Source: Escherichia coli
Lineage (GTDB): Bacteria > Pseudomonadota > Gammaproteobacteria > Enterobacterales > Enterobacteriaceae
DNA length: 64,000 nt
Strand: one strand, 5' to 3'
Assembly: GCF_003334785.1 (NCBI RefSeq)
Contig: NZ_QOWV01000012.1
The notes under the pieces were generated by a model that saw only the letters and a program-made list of their open reading frames with translations, had not been told where the DNA came from and did no database searches. Shown in pieces: positions 2,928 to 47,825 of this stretch. The position numbers were made by a program, and so were the translations under genes. Each line of letters begins with the position of its first letter. Positions within the stretch are counted from its first letter, which is position 1.

Positions 2928-3842
2928 TTAATGAGCATAACGCGTGTTCTCATTAATGGATCGAATCATTGATTGTTTAGCTGAATTCAAATGGTTACGG
3001 AGCGCAAGGGTGGCATCAAGGTCACTGCGGCAAATCAGAGCGCTGAGAATGGTCATATGCTCATCGACGGCAATGATATTGCGCTGTTTAAGATCGCTTT
3101 CGTCCCATTGATAGTGAAAATGAAAGATGACTGAGATGATCTCAAGAGATTGATCAAAAAAGATATTGTCGGCAGCTGAAAGCAGTAAGGAGTGAAAATC
3201 TCTGTCAAGTTGCGAGAACATGCGAAAGCTATTGCCGATGTTGTCACGCAGTAGCCGATGACGTTCGAGCATGGTTTTCGCCTGCAGCCAGCGGGGATCA
3301 TGATCAGGCAGGTTGAGAAAGTGCTGAAGTGAATGTGTTTCGAGCATTTCGCGTAGTTCAAACAGCTGCTCGGCGTAGGATTGATCGAATTGCTTCATGC
3401 TCCACTGGCCGCGCTTTTCGCTTTGAATAAGATTATAACGGCCGAATTTTAAAAGATATTCTCTTACTACAACCGGGCTGACACCCGCGGCCCGAGCCAG
3501 TTGCAGTTCAGAAAAAGTTTCCCCAGGGCGTAACTGGCGCTGGTTTATCATCGTGAAAAAAGCCTGCTCAAACACTTTGTTTTGTTCACTCATTGAAGCG
3601 GTAGTACAGGCGAAACCGTCATCATGGTCAGGTTTACGCGCAATCACATAGTCGTTTCCAACCTGCGTTAAGACGCCGCATTCGCGTAAGTGGCTGAGAA
3701 TATGACGCACTGTAGTGCGGCTGATGTTGTACATTTCCGCCAGCGCACTTTGCGATGGAAGTGGGGAAGGGATATGACCCCGCGCCATATCATCAATGAC
3801 CTGGTTAATCACATTGTGGCGTAAATTTTGTGAACGACTCAT
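2928..3842 (-). CDS. lgoR: GntR/FadR-family transcriptional regulator of L-galactonate catabolism
   Basis: 304-aa ORF with N-terminal GntR-type HTH (YNISRTTVRHIL), conserved synteny. Confidence 0.85.
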   Translation of the reverse strand: MSRSQNLRHNVINQVIDDMARGHIPSPLPSQSALAEMYNISRTTVRHILSHLRECGVLTQVGNDYVIARKPDHDDGFACTTASMSEQNKVFEQAFFTMINQRQLRPGETFSELQLARAAGVSPVVVREYLLKFGRYNLIQSEKRGQWSMKQFDQSYAEQLFELREMLETHSLQHFLNLPDHDPRWLQAKTMLERHRLLRDNIGNSFRMFSQLDRDFHSLLLSAADNIFFDQSLEIISVIFHFHYQWDESDLKQRNIIAVDEHMTILSALICRSDLDATLALRNHLNSAKQSMIRSINENTRYAH

Positions 3843-3980
3843 ATTTTCCTCCTTGTGAGTCCATTAAAACCCGATTTAAAACATTTTTATGCGTGTGTTT
3901 TCACAAAACAGATTTTCCGTTCCGCTGCCATTTTTCATTTTCATTGATATCTAAGGCAACAAAAAATGGAGAGCCGAATC

Positions 3981-5003
3981 ATGTCTACGATGAATGTTTT
4001 AATTTGCCAGCAGCCGAAAGAATTAGTCTGGAAACAACGCGAGATACCTATTCCGGGTGACAATGAAGCATTAATAAAAATTAAGTCTGTCGGGATTTGC
4101 GGTACCGATATTCATGCCTGGGGTGGAAATCAACCATTTTTTAGTTATCCACGTGTTTTAGGCCATGAAATATGTGGGGAGATTGTTGGGCTGGGTAAAA
4201 ATATTGCTGATCTTAAAAATGGTCAGCAAGTTGCTGTGATCCCTTATGTTGCCTGTCAGCAATGCCCGGCGTGTAAAAGCGGGCGTACCAATTGCTGTGA
4301 AAAAATTTCAGTCATTGGCGTGCATCAGGATGGCGGTTTTAGTGAGTATTTGAGCGTGCCGGTGGCGAACATTTTGCCCGCAGACGGTATTGACCCGCAG
4401 GCGGCCGCATTGATTGAACCTTTCGCTATTAGCGCTCATGCGGTGCGTCGCGCAGCCATTGCTCCCGGCGAGCAGGTGCTGGTGGTCGGGGCGGGGCCAA
4501 TCGGTCTGGGCGCGGCGGCAATCGCTAAAGCTGATGGCGCACAGGTGGTGGTGGCGGATACCAGTCCAGCGCGCCGTGAACATGTGGCAACGCGTCTGGA
4601 GTTGCCCGTGCTGGACCCGTCAGCCGAAGATTTTGACGCGCAGCTGCGGGCGCAGTTTGGTGGTTCGCTGGCGCAGAAAGTGATCGACGCGACAGGTAAT
4701 CAACATGCGATGAATAACACCGTGAATTTGATTCGTCACGGCGGCACGGTGGTATTTGTCGGCCTGTTTAAAGGTGAGTTGCAGTTCTCCGATCCGGAAT
4801 TCCATAAAAAAGAAACGACGATGATGGGTAGCCGCAACGCCACGCCGGAAGATTTTGCTAAAGTCGGTCGACTGATGGCGGAAGGAAAAATCACTGCTGA
4901 CATGATGTTAACCCATCGCTATCCGTTCGCCACGCTGGCAGAAACCTACGAGCGCGATGTGATTAACAATCGTGAGTTGATTAAGGGTGTAATTACTTTC
5001 TGA
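3981..5003 (+). CDS. lgoD: Zn-dependent medium-chain dehydrogenase, L-galactonate 5-dehydrogenase
   Basis: GHE..G zinc-ADH motif and GxGxxG NAD fold (VVGAGPIGLG); start chosen at MSTMNVL giving 340 aa. Confidence 0.85.
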   Translation: MSTMNVLICQQPKELVWKQREIPIPGDNEALIKIKSVGICGTDIHAWGGNQPFFSYPRVLGHEICGEIVGLGKNIADLKNGQQVAVIPYVACQQCPACKSGRTNCCEKISVIGVHQDGGFSEYLSVPVANILPADGIDPQAAALIEPFAISAHAVRRAAIAPGEQVLVVGAGPIGLGAAAIAKADGAQVVVADTSPARREHVATRLELPVLDPSAEDFDAQLRAQFGGSLAQKVIDATGNQHAMNNTVNLIRHGGTVVFVGLFKGELQFSDPEFHKKETTMMGSRNATPEDFAKVGRLMAEGKITADMMLTHRYPFATLAETYERDVINNRELIKGVITF

Positions 5004-5142
5004 TAAGGCGAGATTATTAAAGTTGCCATGCAGCGTCCGGGGAAGTGTTGGGCGCTGTTTTTTTTCTGTTTCTCAATGATGTTTTGTAGGCCGGAGAAGA
5101 TGTGTAGGTCGCACCTTATGCGACCTACACATCAGTCAGAAA

Positions 5143-7434
5143 TTACCCTTCACGTTCCACAACTTTAATTTCCACCATGCCGATCCCGAGCTTACGCGGC
5201 GAGTGTCCGAGGATATTCCCTTCGTTGGTTGAGACAGGTTCCGGCGGCACAATTACCAGTGTGTCGGCATCGGTTGGGTTATCGAAATGCAGTGTGGTGG
5301 TGGTCACTTCATTGCCCAGCACAAGAGTTTGTTCTTCATTGCCTACGCGTACCGGAATAGGACGGCTGGCGTTATTGCCGTATGCTTTGGCGGTAATCAC
5401 CAGGTCAAATTTCTTCGGCAGCGGATGCTTGTACTCGATTTTTACTTCATCGCCCAGCTGCGCGTTGGACCAGCGGCCCCACGACTCTGGACGGGAAATC
5501 CCACTAAACTGTTTCACCTCTTCTGGCGCACCGGCGACGTTGAAGATGAAACTGTCGGCTTTGTAGCGAATATCGTTATCAACAATTTTCAGCGTATCGA
5601 CATTGCCTTTATAACGCGCCATGTCGATGACCGTATCTTTAAATGCCGTTTTGCCCTGCCATGTTGTTTTGTCAACATGCTGAACAATTTGCTGACCGCC
5701 AAGCTGCCCTTGCGAGACACACCAGTCGGTGGAGAGTGCCAGTTCCGGAGCCCAGAGTTGTGCCATCTTATAGCAACGGTCAACCCAGACGAAATTGTCG
5801 CGTGGAGCGAAATCGGCCAGCTGGAAACGCAGCGGTGCTGAGTATTCGCTTTCCGGCAGCGGTTCCACGCGTTTGTCTGAAACCCGCAACAGCAGCGGCA
5901 AACGGAAATGGCTACCCGAGAAGGCAATTATGTTTTTCTGCTGGTCGATGGTGAACTCTTTCATCTCTTTAGGGAATTTCCACAGGCGGATGATATCCGG
6001 CTTCCACGCCAATGTTTTCTCTTTGATATTGAGGAAGATTTCCGACATTGACTGCCCGGATAAACTGCTACGACCAAGTCCGAGATAGTTATCGCCACCG
6101 AGAATGTCCAGCACCGTCGCGCCGTTATCCATCGTGTTACGCTTCACTGCCAGCGTCTCTTGCTGCGGCTTGTCGCCACGAATGACAAAAAACAGGTTAT
6201 TGCGATCCTGCTTATTGAGGTATTTCCACGCCGTGTTGTTCATCGCTAAATGGTCAGAAGAGACGACGATGACGGTATCTTTAAACCACGGTGACGCTTT
6301 GATTTTGTTGATAAACGCCGCGATATTCTCCTGGCTGCAACTTACCGCGCTGAATGACTGGTTCGGCTTACCGTCAAGATCATATTTTTTGCGGTTACAG
6401 GTACGCGAGATAAAACCATCCGGGTGATGGGTATCGACTGTCAGGGTAAACAGTGAGAATCGCTGACCTGAGCGGGAAAGCTCTTCAAACTTTTTCCACG
6501 CTTCATCGAGAACGGTATCGTCGTAGAATCCCCAGTCGTTGCGATAGTGCGGGTCGGCCACCACGCTTTTCAGCTCTTCTGAGCCGTATAAGTGGTCGAA
6601 GCCATGCGACTTCAGGAACACATCTTTACCGGCAAAACGCAGATTCGCGCCCTGCACGAAATAGTTCTGATAACCCGAGTTTTTCAGGATATCGCCCAGA
6701 CAGATGTTCTGCGGGAAGAAGCTGGAGACAGAGGCGGAGGCGTTGCCTTCAAAGGGGGCAAACAGCGGTATGCCGCACTGAGAAGCCACCATGCCCGCAA
6801 TCGTGTAATCCGTTCCTGGCAGCTGCTGCGTGTGGCTGAAATCCAGGCCTTCATTTTTCAACGCGCCCAGTTCAGGCGTGAGATCCGGGAAAGCTTCGTT
6901 ATCAAAATAGGTCCGCTCGAGACTTTCGCCGTAGATATAAACCAGGTTGAGTTTCGGGTCAGGGATAGTTTTCGACGGCTCTTTATAATAAGCCGCAAAG
7001 TCCGGGTCGCCATCGCGTGACTGGGATTTCACCAGTTCCGTTATCTGACGAAATGCCGGGCTGGCGTCCACCGAACCCAGCGCCAGTAAGAGCGCCAGCA
7101 GGCTGTAACCAAAATGGTGCGGATGATGGCGACGACGGCGCAGGATCCAGCCCAGCGCACCGAACACCGCTGTCAGCCCCAGCACAATGCCGATACCCGG
7201 CAGGATGTATTTGCTGACGCCAGCACCGGTCAGGCTGTTGGTTAAGGTATAGAGAACCGCGTCGTTAATACCAGCGCCAGTAAAATAGTCGCTGGCAAAC
7301 AGGGTGATATTTAAAACGACAAATAGCCCCAGCACCGTTAATGTGGCTGCAAACCACCAGGTGTTACGTCCCGCTTTCCATGCGTAAATCAGCACAGAGG
7401 CGAGAAAAAGGGCGAAAGAGAGTAGTTCTGACAA
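5143..7434 (-). CDS. opgB: Phosphoglycerol transferase I (osmoregulated periplasmic glucan biosynthesis)
   Basis: 763-aa ORF, N-terminal TM segments plus sulfatase-like domain, matches OpgB/MdoB. Confidence 0.9.
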
Positions 7435-7687
7435 CGGGCGATCCTCACTAAACCGGGCCGTTTAGCCAACGTTTAAGCTTTTTGAGAAGCACAATGTAAT
7501 GGCGTCGCCATATTGCTGCAATTCTAGTGTCAAAAAAATGCGATGTTGTTAGGAATTAGTTTATAAACAGACTTTTTTGATCGCGGTCGCTTCCCGTGTA
7601 ACAGGGGGAAAACCGTCCAGGAGCAGGGAAAAGGGCAGGAGAGAGCCGCGTCAGCCGGGTAACAGCTAAAACGCGGCGTTTCGCGGT

Positions 7688-8182
7688 TCAGGAAATGAAG
7701 TTCAGCCCCTGCTTTAACACCAGATCGCAGGCTTTGGTTTTCACCTTTTCTGCCAGCGGAGTCGTTCCGATGTTATCCAGATTGAGTTGCTGACCATCTT
7801 TGGTTTTCAGCAAACCCTGAATGCCATCCAGATAGTTGGTGTCTTCTTTTTGTTCTTCACTGTTCAGGCCCAGCTTTTCCAGCACCTGGTTCTTGATGTT
7901 TTCGGCATCGGTTACCGACGCCAGCTTTTGCTTCGCGCAGTATTGCAGAATGCCTGCGGCGTTGTTCATGTTATCTGCGCTTAAGGCCTGGTTCCCGCTG
8001 CTAAGCAAGTTAGTTAATGACGCGAGCGACCAACCGCCTTCCTGTGTCGTGCTGTTTTGGTTGCCAAGTTCGCTGGCGGCGCTGGAGAGCGCATCTTTCC
8101 AGGACGCAGCATGCACCCCAGTGGAAATTAATGCGCTGGCGGCAATGGCACAGCACAGAAGATGTTTAACAGTTTTCATCAT
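7688..8182 (-). CDS. yjjA: DUF2501 periplasmic protein with signal peptide
   Basis: 164-aa ORF with cleavable signal peptide, located upstream of dnaC-dnaT as in E. coli. Confidence 0.8.
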   Translation of the reverse strand: MMKTVKHLLCCAIAASALISTGVHAASWKDALSSAASELGNQNSTTQEGGWSLASLTNLLSSGNQALSADNMNNAAGILQYCAKQKLASVTDAENIKNQVLEKLGLNSEEQKEDTNYLDGIQGLLKTKDGQQLNLDNIGTTPLAEKVKTKACDLVLKQGLNFIS

Positions 8183-8230
8183 CATTACTCAAGGTGGAAT
8201 TGTGTCGCAGTATACCGCCAGAAACGGGGA

Positions 8231-8968
8231 TTAATACTCTTTACCTGTTACCCGGCTACGGTAGCTATCCCAGTTGAAGATCACCCACAAACTGTTACCC
8301 AGGCGCATACGGTCCATCACGCGTTCGCCCAGCAACTTGGTCATCTCTTCCATATTACTGTTGGTCAGCATCCCGGTTGGGCGTTTGGAAGAAGAGCGGC
8401 GATCGACGATCTGGTTGATGATCACTTTTTCGTATTTCGATTCGGTCTGCACGCCGATCTCATCGATCACCAGCAGATCAACGTTGCTCAGATCGTTAAG
8501 CAGTTGTTCTTCGCTGGTACCGCTATTCCTGAAGGTATCTTTCATCGCCGACATAATATCGGCCACGGTGATGATCAATACGGATTTACCGCGTAGCAGC
8601 AGCTCGTTGCAGATTGCCGCCGCCAGATGGTTTTTGCCGGTTCCTGGCTTACCAGAAAAGATGAAGCTGGCGATGTTGCCGTCAAACTCTTCGACATACT
8701 GGCGCGCTTTGCTTAACGCATTCATCTGCCCTTCACACTCAACGCGATAGTTCTCAAAGGAGCAGTTCTGATGCAGTGGACGAATACCGGAGCGGTTAAA
8801 GGTGCGCTGCATTTTCATCGCCCGATTTTCACGTTCGAGAGCGGCGGAGCGGATCGCCCCTTGTTCTTTCTGCCAGGCCAGTAGCTCTTCACCCGTTTTG
8901 AATGCAGGTTTGATATGGGCAGGCATCATTTTTTGCAGGCGTTGCATCAGGTCGCCAACGTTTTTCAT
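8231..8968 (-). CDS. dnaC: DNA replication helicase loader DnaC
   Basis: 245 aa, Walker A GKPGTGKNHL, sequence matches DnaC. Confidence 0.95.
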   Translation of the reverse strand: MKNVGDLMQRLQKMMPAHIKPAFKTGEELLAWQKEQGAIRSAALERENRAMKMQRTFNRSGIRPLHQNCSFENYRVECEGQMNALSKARQYVEEFDGNIASFIFSGKPGTGKNHLAAAICNELLLRGKSVLIITVADIMSAMKDTFRNSGTSEEQLLNDLSNVDLLVIDEIGVQTESKYEKVIINQIVDRRSSSKRPTGMLTNSNMEEMTKLLGERVMDRMRLGNSLWVIFNWDSYRSRVTGKEY

Positions 8969-8970
8969 CG

Positions 8971-9510
8971 TTACCCTCTGAATCCTGGTGGAATTTGGCT
9001 GTCAGGTTCGCTGACCGTATTCACATCTCGTTTCGGCAGTCCGCCGTTGCTGGCACGACCGATTTGCAGGCTGCGCGCCAGTTTTTGTTGCCACTGCACA
9101 TGGTGAAAGACTTTACCTTCCGCCTGCCAGTAGGCAATGAATGAGGCCAGTTCTTCGGTGGTCACCGGCTCTCTTAGCGCCACGCCCCATAGCGCCGCCA
9201 GGCGGATAAAGTCGGCATCGGGTTGCCAGTCCGGATACATGGCGAATTTCCCCATGGGGACAGCAACGGGAGCGGCTTGCGGTTCCTGATAGAGTTGATC
9301 GTCCAGAGCGACATCGCTTCCCGGACGCGCCAGCTTTTCTTCCAGCGCCAGCAGTTCAGCCAGGCGTGCAGGCGTGACGGCATAAAACGCCGGGGCATTG
9401 TTAGCAAATACGGCAACCACACCGCCTTCAGCTTTTGCCAGAACGGTTTGGTGATCGTGTACCAGGGCGTCAATACCAACGACGTCCGGGGTCAAAACTC
9501 TGGAAGACAT
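8971..9510 (-). CDS. dnaT: Primosomal protein DnaT
   Basis: 179 aa starting MSSRVLT, immediately upstream of dnaC with 2-bp gap (operon). Confidence 0.9.
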
Positions 9511-9616: not shown

Positions 9617-10090
9617 TTATACGCGAGGGCGCTTGCGGTACAACCATAATCCAGGAATGGAAAGACCGATGGATAACGCACCAACAATCGATGAAGCTGT
9701 AAGAAAGTTGGTTAACAGGGTAATCATCAACGGTTCGCTGTAACCTAACTGGCTGATTTTTACCGCCGAAATCATTGCGGTATAAGCCGATATGCCCGGG
9801 AACATAGGGATAACGGCCGCCACGGTAAACACTTTCGGATGCGCCAGATACCAGCGCGACCATTGAATACCAATGGTGCCGACCAGCATAGAAGCCATAA
9901 AAGTTGACCACTCAATATTCAGCCCGCTGGTCATTAAGATCATTCGTGAACCATGGCCAATCGCGCCAAGCAGCGCACACCAGCGTAACGCCCGCACGGG
10001 AACGTTGAACACCATCGCAAAGCCGACCGCTGGAATGGCGGCGAGGATCATATCCTGCGCCAATGCAAACAGAAACTCGATCACACCCAT
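9617..10090 (-). CDS. yjjB: ThrE-family membrane protein, C-terminal-type half (YjjB)
   Basis: 157-aa hydrophobic ORF overlapping yjjP stop by 10 bp. Confidence 0.8.
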
Positions 10091-10851
10091 CCGCGTAGCC
10101 CCCAAATCGTCAGTGCCATCACTACGCCGACGCAGGTAGCCAGCGTCAGCAGACTGGCGATCGCCCAGCGTGCCAGTCCGGTATTGATGTGGCCTTTAAA
10201 CATATCGGCGACGGCATTAATCAACGGAAAGCCCGGCACCAGCAGCAGAACGCTGGCGGCCATCGCAATGGTGGGTGTATCGCTGAAAGTGGGGAGTTGC
10301 AAAAGCAATCCGGAAATGGTGGTGGCGGCGAAAGCGGTAAGGCAAAAGTTGATCTGTGGATGAAGATGACGTTGTGCCAGCAGCTGGCGGATATACATCG
10401 CGGTCGTACTGGCAAAGAAGGTGATGACGGCACCATCCCAGCCACCGTTATTGAGTTTACAGAAACAGGCGCAAGAAAGGCCAACCATTAAGGCTACCAG
10501 CCATCTTGGGTAACGTAATGGCTGAATTTGGCTAAATCGTTTCTCTACGCCTTTGTAATCCAGCAGATGATGCTCCGCAAGAATCACAATGTGCTGGACT
10601 TCAGTCACCACATGCATATTAATGCCGCGATCGTGATTTTTTCGTGTCGATGTCAGGCATTGCCCATCTTTAATAGTTGTCAGCACTATGGCGTTCGAAG
10701 AGATAGAACTTTCGACGCTGTCCATTCCCAACGCCCGACCCAGTCGTGAGGAAAGCTCATCAACCAACGCGCTTTCCGCACCATGTTGCAAAAGAAATAA
10801 TCCACACTGGATACAAAGCCGCGTTACGGCTCGCTGTTGCTCAGTTTGCAT
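10081..10851 (-). CDS. yjjP: ThrE-family inner membrane protein (YjjP)
   Basis: Start chosen at MQTEQQRAV giving 256 aa; multi-TM. Confidence 0.8.
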
Positions 10852-11471
10852 AACTCGCCCTTTGTCATAGACGTGCTGCGTATTGTTCAGATAATGAGAA
10901 TCCATTTGTATCATGAAGCACGGTTGTTTTGCGGTAGGTTAAGATCAAAATTGCGCTGATTAATCCTGGTTATCGGGACAAGCTCGGTGATAAAAAGCGA
11001 ATTATCTCTCGCCGCAAACAAACTATCACATGAATATTATCACTATAATGAATTTATTGTTTTAGCCTTTACGGGTCAGGATAATAGATAGCTGGGCGCG
11101 TTTTTTAGTGTTAACAAGTTAAAATCATCAGATTTTATTGAATAAATATTGATTGTGTGATTCCCGCATTCTGCGGGAAGGGATATCATTTAATTATAAA
11201 TTAAATGAATGTGATTTCTGTTTTTCATTAAGTATTCCTAACAACTTAATGTAGATATTTTAAATGTCTCCAGGCTATTTCACCAGGTTATCATTTGATG
11301 CTAACCTTCTGACACATGCAGTGGAGTTGTTGTGCAGCAGGAGTATGCTGATATGAAAGTGAATGCTAAGGATAATTTATTCGCTTAATCTATTAATTTG
11401 CTGGAAACATTTAAGGAATGAATATCCTGAATAAACCATCATAATTTTTAGACAGTGGATGTGGAGGAAAT

Positions 11472-12197
11472 ATGTTGCCAGGATGCTGCAAAAATGGAAT
11501 TGTTATCAGTAAAATACCTGTTATGCAAGCAGGGTTAAAAGAGGTCATGAGGACTCACTTCCCTGAATATGAAATAATATCCAGCGCCTCTGCGGAGGAC
11601 CTTACCTTATTACAATTACGTCGTTCCGGATTAGTCATTGCTGATTTAGCCGGTGAAAGTGAAGATCCACGTTCTGTTTGTGAACATTATTATTCTTTAA
11701 TCTCACAATATCGGGAAATTCACTGGGTTTTCATGGTGTCACGCTCCTGGTATTCCCAGGCAGTAGAACTGCTCATGTGCCCTACGGCGACGTTATTGTC
11801 TGATGTTGAACCCATTGAGAATCTGGTCAAGACCGTACGTTCCGGCAATACGCACGCAGAGCGTATCAGCGCCATGCTGACCTCTCCGGCAATGACTGAA
11901 ACTCATGATTTTAGCTATCGCTCCGTCATTCTCACTCTTTCAGAGCGCAAGGTACTGCGGCTATTAGGTAAAGGATGGGGCATCAACCAGATAGCTTCAT
12001 TGCTTAAGAAAAGTAATAAAACTATCAGCGCCCAAAAAAACAGTGCGATGCGTCGACTGGCAATTCACAGCAACGCTGAAATGTATGCATGGATAAATAG
12101 CGCGCAGGGTGCAAGAGAACTTAACTTGCCTTCTGTTTATGGAGATGCCGCAGAATGGAACACAGCCGAATTAAGAAGAGAAATGTCGCACTCATAG
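11472..12197 (+). CDS. yjjQ: LuxR/FixJ-family transcriptional regulator
   Basis: 241 aa with C-terminal LuxR-type HTH; preceded by a long AT-rich region. Confidence 0.85.
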
Positions 12198-12832
12198 AAA
12201 AATGCGTCATGAGTAGTATCGGTATTGAGAGTTTATTCAGAAAGTTTGCGGGCAACCCTTATAAGCTCCATACCTATACCAGTCAGGAGTCATTTCAGGA
12301 TGCCATGTCGCGGATCTCGTTTGCGGCGGTCATTTTTTCTTTTTCTGCCATGAGAAGTGAGCGCAGAGAGGGATTATCTTGCCTGACTGAACTGGCGATT
12401 AAGTTTCCGCGTACCCGGCGTTTAGTTATTGCGGATGATGATATTGAAGCTCGGCTGATTGGTTCATTGTCGCCATCACCGCTGGACGGTGTATTAAGTA
12501 AAGCGTCAACGCTGGAGATTTTTCATCAGGAACTCTTTTTGTCATTAAATGGTGTACGTCAGGCGACCGACCGACTGAACAATCAGTGGTACATTAACCA
12601 AAGCCGGACGCTAAGCCCGACGGAGAGAGAAATATTGCGCTTTATGTCGCGTGGCTACTCAATGACACAAATTGCCGAGCAGCTTAAACGCAATATCAAA
12701 ACGATCCGCGCGCATAAATTTAATGTGATGTCGAAACTGGGCGTCAGTTCTGATGCAGGATTGTTGGAGGCCGCAGATATTCTGTTATGTATGCGGCATT
12801 GCGAAGCAAGTAATGTGTTGCATCCCTATTAA
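12155..12832 (+). CDS. bglJ: LuxR-family transcriptional activator BglJ
   Basis: 225 aa, overlaps yjjQ 3' end, C-terminal LuxR HTH. Confidence 0.85.
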
Positions 12833-12869
12833 TCCGCATGATGCCGGGTTTACTTCCCCGGCAGTGCTT

Positions 12870-47190: not shown

Positions 47191-47285
47191 GTTTGCTACC
47201 TAAATTGCCAACTAAATCGAAACAGGAAGTACAAAAGTCCCTGACCTGCCTGATGCATGCTGCAAATTAACATGATCGGCGTAAC

Positions 47286-47426
47286 ATGACTAAAGTACGT
47301 AATTGCGTTCTTGATGCACTTTCCATCAACGTCAACAACATCATTAGCTTGGTCGTGGGTACTTTCCCTCAGGACCCGACAGTGTCAAAAACGGCTGTCA
47401 TCCTAACCATTTTAACAGCAACATAA
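47286..47426 (+). CDS. yjjY: Small ORF YjjY (46 aa) in the arcA upstream region
   Basis: ATG..TAA ORF translating MTKVRNCVLDALSINVNNIISLVVGTFPQDPTVSKTAVILTILTAT; below the ORF-track threshold, found by manual translation. Confidence 0.55.
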   Translation: MTKVRNCVLDALSINVNNIISLVVGTFPQDPTVSKTAVILTILTAT

Positions 47427-47825
47427 CAGGCTAAGAGGGGCCGGACACCCAATAAAACTACGCTTCGTTGACATATATCAAGTTCAATTGTAGCACGTTA
47501 ACAGTTTGATGAAATCATCGTATCTAAATGCTAGCTTTCGTCACATTATTTTAATAATCCAACTAGTTGCATCATACAACTAATAAACGTGGTGAATCCA
47601 ATTGTCGAGATTTATTTTTTATAAAATTATCCTAAGTAAACAGAAGGATATGTAGCATTTTTTAACAATTCAACCGTTAGTACAGTCAGGAAATAGTTTA
47701 GCCTTTTTTAAGCTAAGTAAAGGGCTTTTTCTGCGACTTACGTTAAGGATTTGTAAATTCGCACCGCGTAATAAGTTGACAGTGATCACCCTGTTCGCGG
47801 TCATTTGGTCAAGAAGAGTGGCAAT

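Follow-up and report, generated by a model that had tools for sequence, protein, structure and literature searches.

The AT-rich spacer between yjjP and yjjQ-bglJ of Escherichia coli, a probable shared control region under H-NS silencing

Genes at the locus and extent of the spacer

The window, i.e., the whole 64-kb stretch of DNA that was analysed, is E. coli chromosome. In RefSeq, near-identical genomes and K-12 MG1655 have opgB, yjjA, dnaC, dnaT, yjjB and yjjP in leftward orientation, followed by the rightward pair yjjQ and bglJ and, beyond it, by fhuF, yjjZ, three tRNA-Leu genes and rsmC. The YjjP protein is annotated in K-12 as a putative succinate exporter. Downstream of the spacer is an operon of two LuxR-type regulators, whose reading frames overlap (Table 1). 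YjjQ displays a Pfam GerE match at residues 153-206, which represents the GerE/LuxR-type helix-turn-helix domain, and BglJ scores 383 bits against the NCBIfam BglJ model (cut-off 176). Thus the initial annotation, made from the sequence alone, was correct in placing overlapping LuxR-type genes directly after the spacer. The gap between bglJ and fhuF is 37 bp in Escherichia (12833-12869 of the window), and outside Escherichia ~2.2 kb separates the two genes. In Klebsiella pneumoniae (locus L071), translations of positions 7364-9503, read by eye, show a 152-aa YbaK/EbsC-type deacylase-like and a 447-aa PTS EIIC-like protein.

The spacer is taken to be 10852-11471 because the RefSeq YjjP has 256 aa, with its start at 10851. 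The 557-bp block proposed initially, 10915-11471, is the same spacer, with a left edge that had been taken from the longest yjjP open reading frame (277 aa) and that is here moved outward. The 277-aa start at 10914 was set aside, as 10852-10914 has indels of lengths not divisible by three and RefSeq gives the 256-aa start. It should be noted that ATG or GTG is often found at the position of the 277-aa start in other species.

The K-12 counterpart of the spacer is at 4,602,859-4,603,476. Counted from the 256-aa and the 277-aa yjjP start, respectively, the spacer measures 620 and 557 bp here, versus 618 and 555 bp in K-12. In K-12 the region has reportedly been described as 555 bp of AT-rich intergenic DNA, to which H-NS binds in the centre, with LeuO sites both there and across the yjjP promoter; the length of 555 bp agrees with that computed for K-12 from the old yjjP start. 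The two spacers are 97% identical, with 17 differences in 620 columns, two of which are single-base indels. All 17 differences fall in 10979-11165, and the 300 bp adjoining yjjQ and the 125 bp adjoining yjjP are identical to K-12. Beyond these 190 bp, identity to K-12 is 99-100% in the remaining spacer and over most of yjjP, yjjQ and bglJ. Such clustering suggests either a locally hypervariable segment or a small patch of recombination.

The K-12 yjjP/yjjQ-bglJ region (Stratmann, Madhusudan & Schnetz 2008, J Bacteriol 190:926) is the same locus with the same flanking genes. The present spacer differs from it as an allele only, and one central difference gives a strain-specific 8-bp hairpin here. 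The feature is already known and is an ordinary part of a well-studied genome. It carries little weight as a discovery: the locus, its AT-richness, its repression by H-NS and its activation by LeuO have been in print since 2008 and can be found in standard E. coli databases.

Table 1. Features of the yjjP/yjjQ-bglJ region, in positions of the window
Feature	Position	Strand	Description and basis
yjjP	10081-10851	-	256 aa, ThrE-family membrane protein; transcription directed away from the spacer
yjjP/yjjQ-bglJ divergent intergenic spacer	10852-11471		620 bp, 34.8% GC; RefSeq annotation of near-identical genomes
Conserved block, yjjP side	10905-10959		TTTGTATCATGAAG ... GGTTAAGATCAA..TTG.G.TGA; Escherichia, Citrobacter, Salmonella; alignment and identity profile
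Fast-changing AT-rich centre	~10975-11225		holds all differences from K-12; barely alignable in other Escherichia species
IS1A insertion site, swine E. coli isolate	11010-11019		isolate flanks 100% identical to the window
Predicted sigma-70 promoter, yjjP	11200-11228	-	ATGAAA-17-TTTAAT; sequence prediction listed by Shimada 2014 (PMC3946193), located in the window
Conserved block TTAAGTATTCCTAACAACTTAATGTAGATATTTTAAATGT	11228-11267		205-245 bp upstream of yjjQ; aligned as TAACAA.TTAAT.TAGATATTTTAA.TGT
Promoter-like site, yjjQ-bglJ	11348-11376	+	CTGATA-17-GATAAT; consensus scan, same hexamers in PMC3946193
Conserved block AAGGATAA...ATTC	11368-11382		includes the -10 hexamer of the predicted yjjQ promoter
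Shine-Dalgarno GGAGG	11463-11467	+	4 nt before the yjjQ ATG
yjjQ	11472-12197	+	LuxR/GerE-type transcription factor; first gene of the yjjQ-bglJ operon
bglJ	12155-12832	+	LuxR-type regulator; 43 nt overlap with yjjQ

Base composition and internal organisation of the spacer

The 557-bp block has 34.1% G+C, versus 52.0% for the whole window, 52.5% for the 2 kb to its left and 47.8% for the 2 kb to its right. Windows of 557 bp that are as low or lower in GC make up 0.25% of all those in the 64 kb, and the minimum among them, 32.7% at 11024-11580, overlaps the block. Thus the claim that the spacer is more AT-rich than its surroundings was borne out by the GC profile. The low-GC stretch extends ~110 bp inside yjjQ. 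TpA steps occur at twice the window frequency. The second most AT-rich block of the window is at 47203-47759 (37.2% GC) and has the longest A/T-only run of the window, 21 bp at position 47610. By colinearity with L084 it is the upstream region of yjtD/yjjY/arcA, a region that is also a target of adaptive mutation in the mouse-gut papers cited below.

Alignment of 12 spacers from Escherichia, Citrobacter and Salmonella reveals four conserved blocks around a fast-changing centre. On the yjjP side, the block at 10905-10959 is a candidate promoter or 5′-leader region of yjjP. The centre shows 46-64% identity between E. coli and other Escherichia species, with 80-95% in the flanking genes, and in the identity profile it is the most divergent part of the entire yjjP-bglJ region. 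The GC content of the spacer in other Escherichia species is 32.5-34.3%, and the centre stays at ~33% GC.

On the yjjQ side, the TAG.TA.TTTAA.TGT core of the block at 11228-11267 is found at a near-fixed distance, -216 to -238 from yjjQ, in the 12 species of Escherichia, Citrobacter and Salmonella. Within this block, TATTCCTA (11233-11240) fits the wwTTCykA core of the BglJ-RcsB box as quoted in PMC3950696. It is the sole wwTTCykA match in the spacer and is not significant alone; possibly it is an RcsB-type half-site, through which BglJ-RcsB or RcsB could feed back on the yjjQ-bglJ operon. The AAGGATAA block lies 98-119 bp upstream of yjjQ in 19 species, with one exception at -70, and a GGAGG is present 3-9 nt ahead of the yjjQ start in 62 of 77 species. 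Thus the blocks at 11228-11267 and 11368-11382 keep a near-fixed spacing to the yjjQ start in Escherichia, Citrobacter and Salmonella. In Klebsiella and Enterobacter neither can be recognised, and what persists there is the AT-richness and the Shine-Dalgarno sequence alone. The exact positions given for the yjjP and yjjQ-bglJ promoters are putative.

Conservation in the Enterobacteriaceae and insertions in the spacer

A 1-kb query centred on the feature was matched in 5425 of 5426 complete E. coli genomes, with an identity of 95-100% in almost every case, and in 5400 of these genomes a single match covered at least 80% of the query. A scan with YjjQ, with one genome per species, returned 80 loci, from Escherichia, Citrobacter, Salmonella, Klebsiella, Enterobacter, Kluyvera, Raoultella, Lelliottia, Leclercia, Trabulsiella, Phytobacter, Kosakonia, Pseudocitrobacter and others. 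YjjQ identity ranges from 98% down to 55% and broadly tracks relatedness. Nearly all of the ~80 species, in more than 20 genera, have the same arrangement, with a divergent yjjP upstream, yjjQ followed by bglJ, and fhuF beyond. Outside Escherichia, identities are 39-68% for BglJ, 55-74% for YjjQ and 83-91% for YjjP.

The low GC content is shared as well. The 400 bp upstream of yjjQ average 35.7% GC in 77 species, versus 51.7% for the ~12.7-kb locus, and in 66 of the 77 species the lowest-GC 400-bp window of the locus is at the yjjQ upstream region. The mean GC contents of yjjQ (46.8%) and bglJ (48.2%) over the 77 species are below the locus mean, and this is so everywhere.

Local variants occur at several of the loci. 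The distance between yjjP and yjjQ is ~2.6 kb in Klebsiella, Raoultella, Kluyvera, some Citrobacter and a few other genera (loci L071, L009-L012, L026, L027, L030, L035, L041, L044, L047, L061, L066, L067, L075-L077, L082 and L083). In the K. pneumoniae locus L071, the extra DNA (3653-5735) encodes a 394-aa flavin monooxygenase-like protein and a 302-aa AraC-type regulator; read by eye, these appear to be pobA-pobR. The ~265 bp that remain upstream of yjjQ are still AT-rich. In Escherichia albertii NBRC 107761 (L008), yjjP has lost ~0.6 kb of its 5′ part, and YjjP residues 204-256 alone are encoded (~5183-5380); the AT-rich spacer, yjjQ and bglJ are retained. In Citrobacter koseri NCTC10786 (L014, 4195-5430), the YjjP and YjjB tblastn matches are each in two pieces in different frames, which represent either frameshifts (pseudogenes) or assembly errors.

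Insertion sequences are also found in the spacer. Among the matches listed, at least one natural isolate, the swine isolate of Table 1, carries an IS insertion: an IS1A of 767 bp with a target duplication of ~9 bp lies in its yjjP/yjjQ spacer (NZ_CM135183.1, 1821-2587). The window itself is without an insertion at this site. For 25 records of the 1-kb search no single match spans at least 80% of the query, and match places outnumber records by 25; further E. coli genomes with split matches may represent insertions in the spacer. IS insertions in this spacer recur when E. coli K-12 adapts to the mouse gut, where they were found in 57% of wild-type mice; competition showed them to be beneficial or neutral, and yjjP expression was raised ~2-fold in aerobic culture (PMC4674774, PMC5094792, PMC7064181). 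The IS1A of the swine isolate is the same kind of mutation as in these evolution experiments. The spacer has also been used as a host-informative marker in source tracking. Its practical relevance thus lies in its being a recurrent adaptive IS target in the mouse gut and a source-tracking marker.

Probable silencing by H-NS, alternative explanations and origin

According to the papers that cite Stratmann et al. 2008 (Breddermann 2016, PMC5025477; Sankar 2009, PMC2646131; Guadarrama 2014, PMC4264507), H-NS represses both yjjQ-bglJ and yjjP, and LeuO activates both. The yjjQ-bglJ operon is derepressed in hns stpA strains (PMC3950696). In the genomic SELEX work of Shimada 2014 (PMC3946193), the yjjP/yjjQ spacer is marked 'HNS' in the table and is among the RpoD-holoenzyme sites. 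Under laboratory conditions repression by H-NS prevails, and the activation of the native operon by LeuO is too weak to matter (Breddermann 2016, PMC5025477). Thus H-NS silencing of the spacer is supported, from the literature. The initial annotation had taken the block for H-NS-silenced, horizontally acquired regulatory DNA; as far as the citing papers convey it, the published K-12 description of an AT-rich, H-NS-repressed and LeuO-activated spacer matches the first half of that proposal, and the second half, in the sense of a recent acquisition, did not stand, as set out below.

A scan for the H-NS consensus motif TCGATAAATT with up to two mismatches yields 6.5 matches per kb in the spacer versus 1.1 per kb elsewhere. 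The matches in the spacer are four, each with two mismatches, and none has zero or one; 4.6% of composition-matched shuffles reach that count. The enrichment is thus a weak one.

The reading preferred here, to which we give a probability of about 0.9, is that the spacer is a shared control region of yjjP and yjjQ-bglJ, with an AT-rich body that is silenced by H-NS and with LeuO opposing the silencing. The block would serve as the joint control region of two divergent units, yjjP on the left and the yjjQ-bglJ operon on the right, and its long AT-rich body would be a landing pad for the nucleoid protein H-NS. H-NS would nucleate in the AT-rich centre and spread or bridge over the spacer and the yjjQ start, and with this coverage both promoters would be off under ordinary conditions. 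Silencing would probably reach the 5′ end of yjjQ. The LysR-type regulator LeuO would bind in the spacer and counter the silencing, and an IS insertion in the spacer would be a mutational route to altered expression. A centre whose composition is conserved and whose sequence is not would be expected of a binding platform for H-NS, which reads AT-rich DNA and not a strict motif. In the centre, selection would then maintain composition and not sequence.

The regulatory region of the E. coli bgl operon is similar in that it has an AT-rich silenced promoter at which LeuO acts against H-NS and expression is altered by IS elements (PMC2646131, PMC9678765). Unlike in bgl, two divergent promoters share the silenced yjjP/yjjQ region. 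The bgl regulatory region, which is activated by BglJ-RcsB as well, has a downstream H-NS site, and the low-GC stretch that enters yjjQ recalls that site and might be its analogue. Several E. coli lineages have lost bgl or are losing it (PMC2646131), whereas the yjjP/yjjQ spacer belongs to the core, with family-wide synteny.

A narrower form of the preferred reading is that the spacer is a vertically inherited H-NS landing pad under selection for composition, which predates the split of Escherichia, Klebsiella and Enterobacter, and in which only the promoter-proximal blocks are constrained in sequence, and these in Escherichia, Citrobacter and Salmonella only. The central ~250 bp would be free in sequence and length so long as they remain AT-rich. 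Taken as a whole, this is a tentative proposal, to which we give slightly less than even chances.

A single acquisition before the examined Enterobacteriaceae diverged is compatible with the shared control region; the DNA would have stayed AT-rich since then through shelter by H-NS or through selection. In its favour are the low GC contents of yjjQ and bglJ relative to their neighbours in every genus, and the faster evolution of BglJ and YjjQ compared with YjjP outside Escherichia. However, a native gene that is silenced and weakly expressed would be expected just as much to evolve fast and to be low in GC, and in a sampling that covers the Enterobacteriaceae neither a donor nor an insertion scar is directly in evidence. 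An ancient acquisition is considered unlikely, although it deserves some weight.

Much smaller is the chance that the spacer is an ordinary long divergent promoter region of usual intergenic AT-richness, without a special silencing role. Intergenic DNA of E. coli is usually AT-richer than genes. Among the 26 spacers in the surrounding 50 kb (mean GC 43.6%, sd 7.5%), the yjjP/yjjQ spacer is third lowest in GC, at 1.2 sd under the mean, and it is the longest, at four times the median of 156 bp. Length, more than GC, sets it apart from nearby spacers. The block has A/T-only runs of up to 19 bp (11188-11206, the second longest in the window), and 6 of the 81 A/T runs of at least 9 bp in the window fall inside it, in 1% of the sequence. 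In comparison with shuffled sequences, no excess of A/T runs over composition was detected in the block (27.5% of shuffles have as many), nor was AA/TT phasing at 10-11.5 bp beyond composition (6% of shuffles). Thus the long A/T tracts that had been pointed out initially are real, and their number is what composition predicts. While composition accounts for the runs and the phasing, this explanation does not agree with the published repression by H-NS and activation by LeuO, with the length of the spacer, or with the retention of AT-richness across genera despite the turnover of the central sequence, and it is regarded as very improbable.

That the AT-rich block and yjjQ-bglJ are recently acquired foreign DNA, with a composition left over from the donor, is largely refuted, and we give it hardly any credence. 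The genes are indeed unlike their host in composition, with yjjQ at 44.9% and bglJ at 45.4% GC, well under the pooled genes at 53.2%, and the three tRNA-Leu genes are ~1.2 kb past fhuF. However the same GC offset is present in all genera, including all 77 species examined, and no integrase or transposase is annotated between opgB and rsmC. Presence within E. coli is near universal and not patchy, and in related genera the locus is neither absent nor differently placed, the order yjjP/yjjQ-bglJ...fhuF being common to the ~80 species. Because of its presence in 5425 of 5426 genomes, the synteny in more than 20 genera, the low GC in 77 species and the lack of mobility genes, the locus is judged to be core and old; its AT-richness is long-maintained, with no mark of recent import. 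Horizontal acquisition as a recent event is thus not supported.

Equally negligible is the idea that an unannotated small RNA, small protein gene or structured RNA leader is concealed in the spacer and accounts for its length, which is long for a spacer: an Rfam scan of 10000-12500 gave no family at E ≤ 1, no open reading frame of more than 37 aa and no conserved small ORF lies within the spacer, whose centre has frame-breaking indels between species, the putative yjjQ leader (11383-11480) folds no better than shuffles (z = +1.19), and the terminator scan gave 1 hit versus 0.9 expected. An 8-bp GC-rich hairpin, TTCCCGCA-ttc-TGCGGGAA (~11162-11180), is present in the AT-rich centre; it was dropped as a conserved element, as its left arm is absent in K-12 and other Escherichia and it is thus specific to the strain lineage. 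Promoter-like sites number 7 versus 3.4 +/- 1.8 expected, which is not decisive, and direct and inverted repeats in the spacer are merely the short, imperfect pairs typical of AT-rich DNA.

The yjjP/yjjQ locus resembles acquired islands under xenogeneic silencing by H-NS in its AT-rich, H-NS-repressed DNA and in genes with a GC content below that of the chromosome. Unlike such islands, it is universal in E. coli, keeps its synteny across more than 20 genera and lacks mobility genes. The label 'horizontally acquired' is thereby corrected: this is core, syntenic DNA, and DNA that is AT-rich and bound by H-NS need not have been imported. The conservation of AT-richness across the family, without that of the central sequence, fits recognition by H-NS of composition or shape over motif. 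If the reading as a vertically inherited landing pad is true, nature would provide here a clear case in which H-NS silencing serves native genes as a lasting means of regulation and not as a defence against imported DNA, and IS elements captured by the spacer would be a natural way, taken repeatedly, of altering expression.
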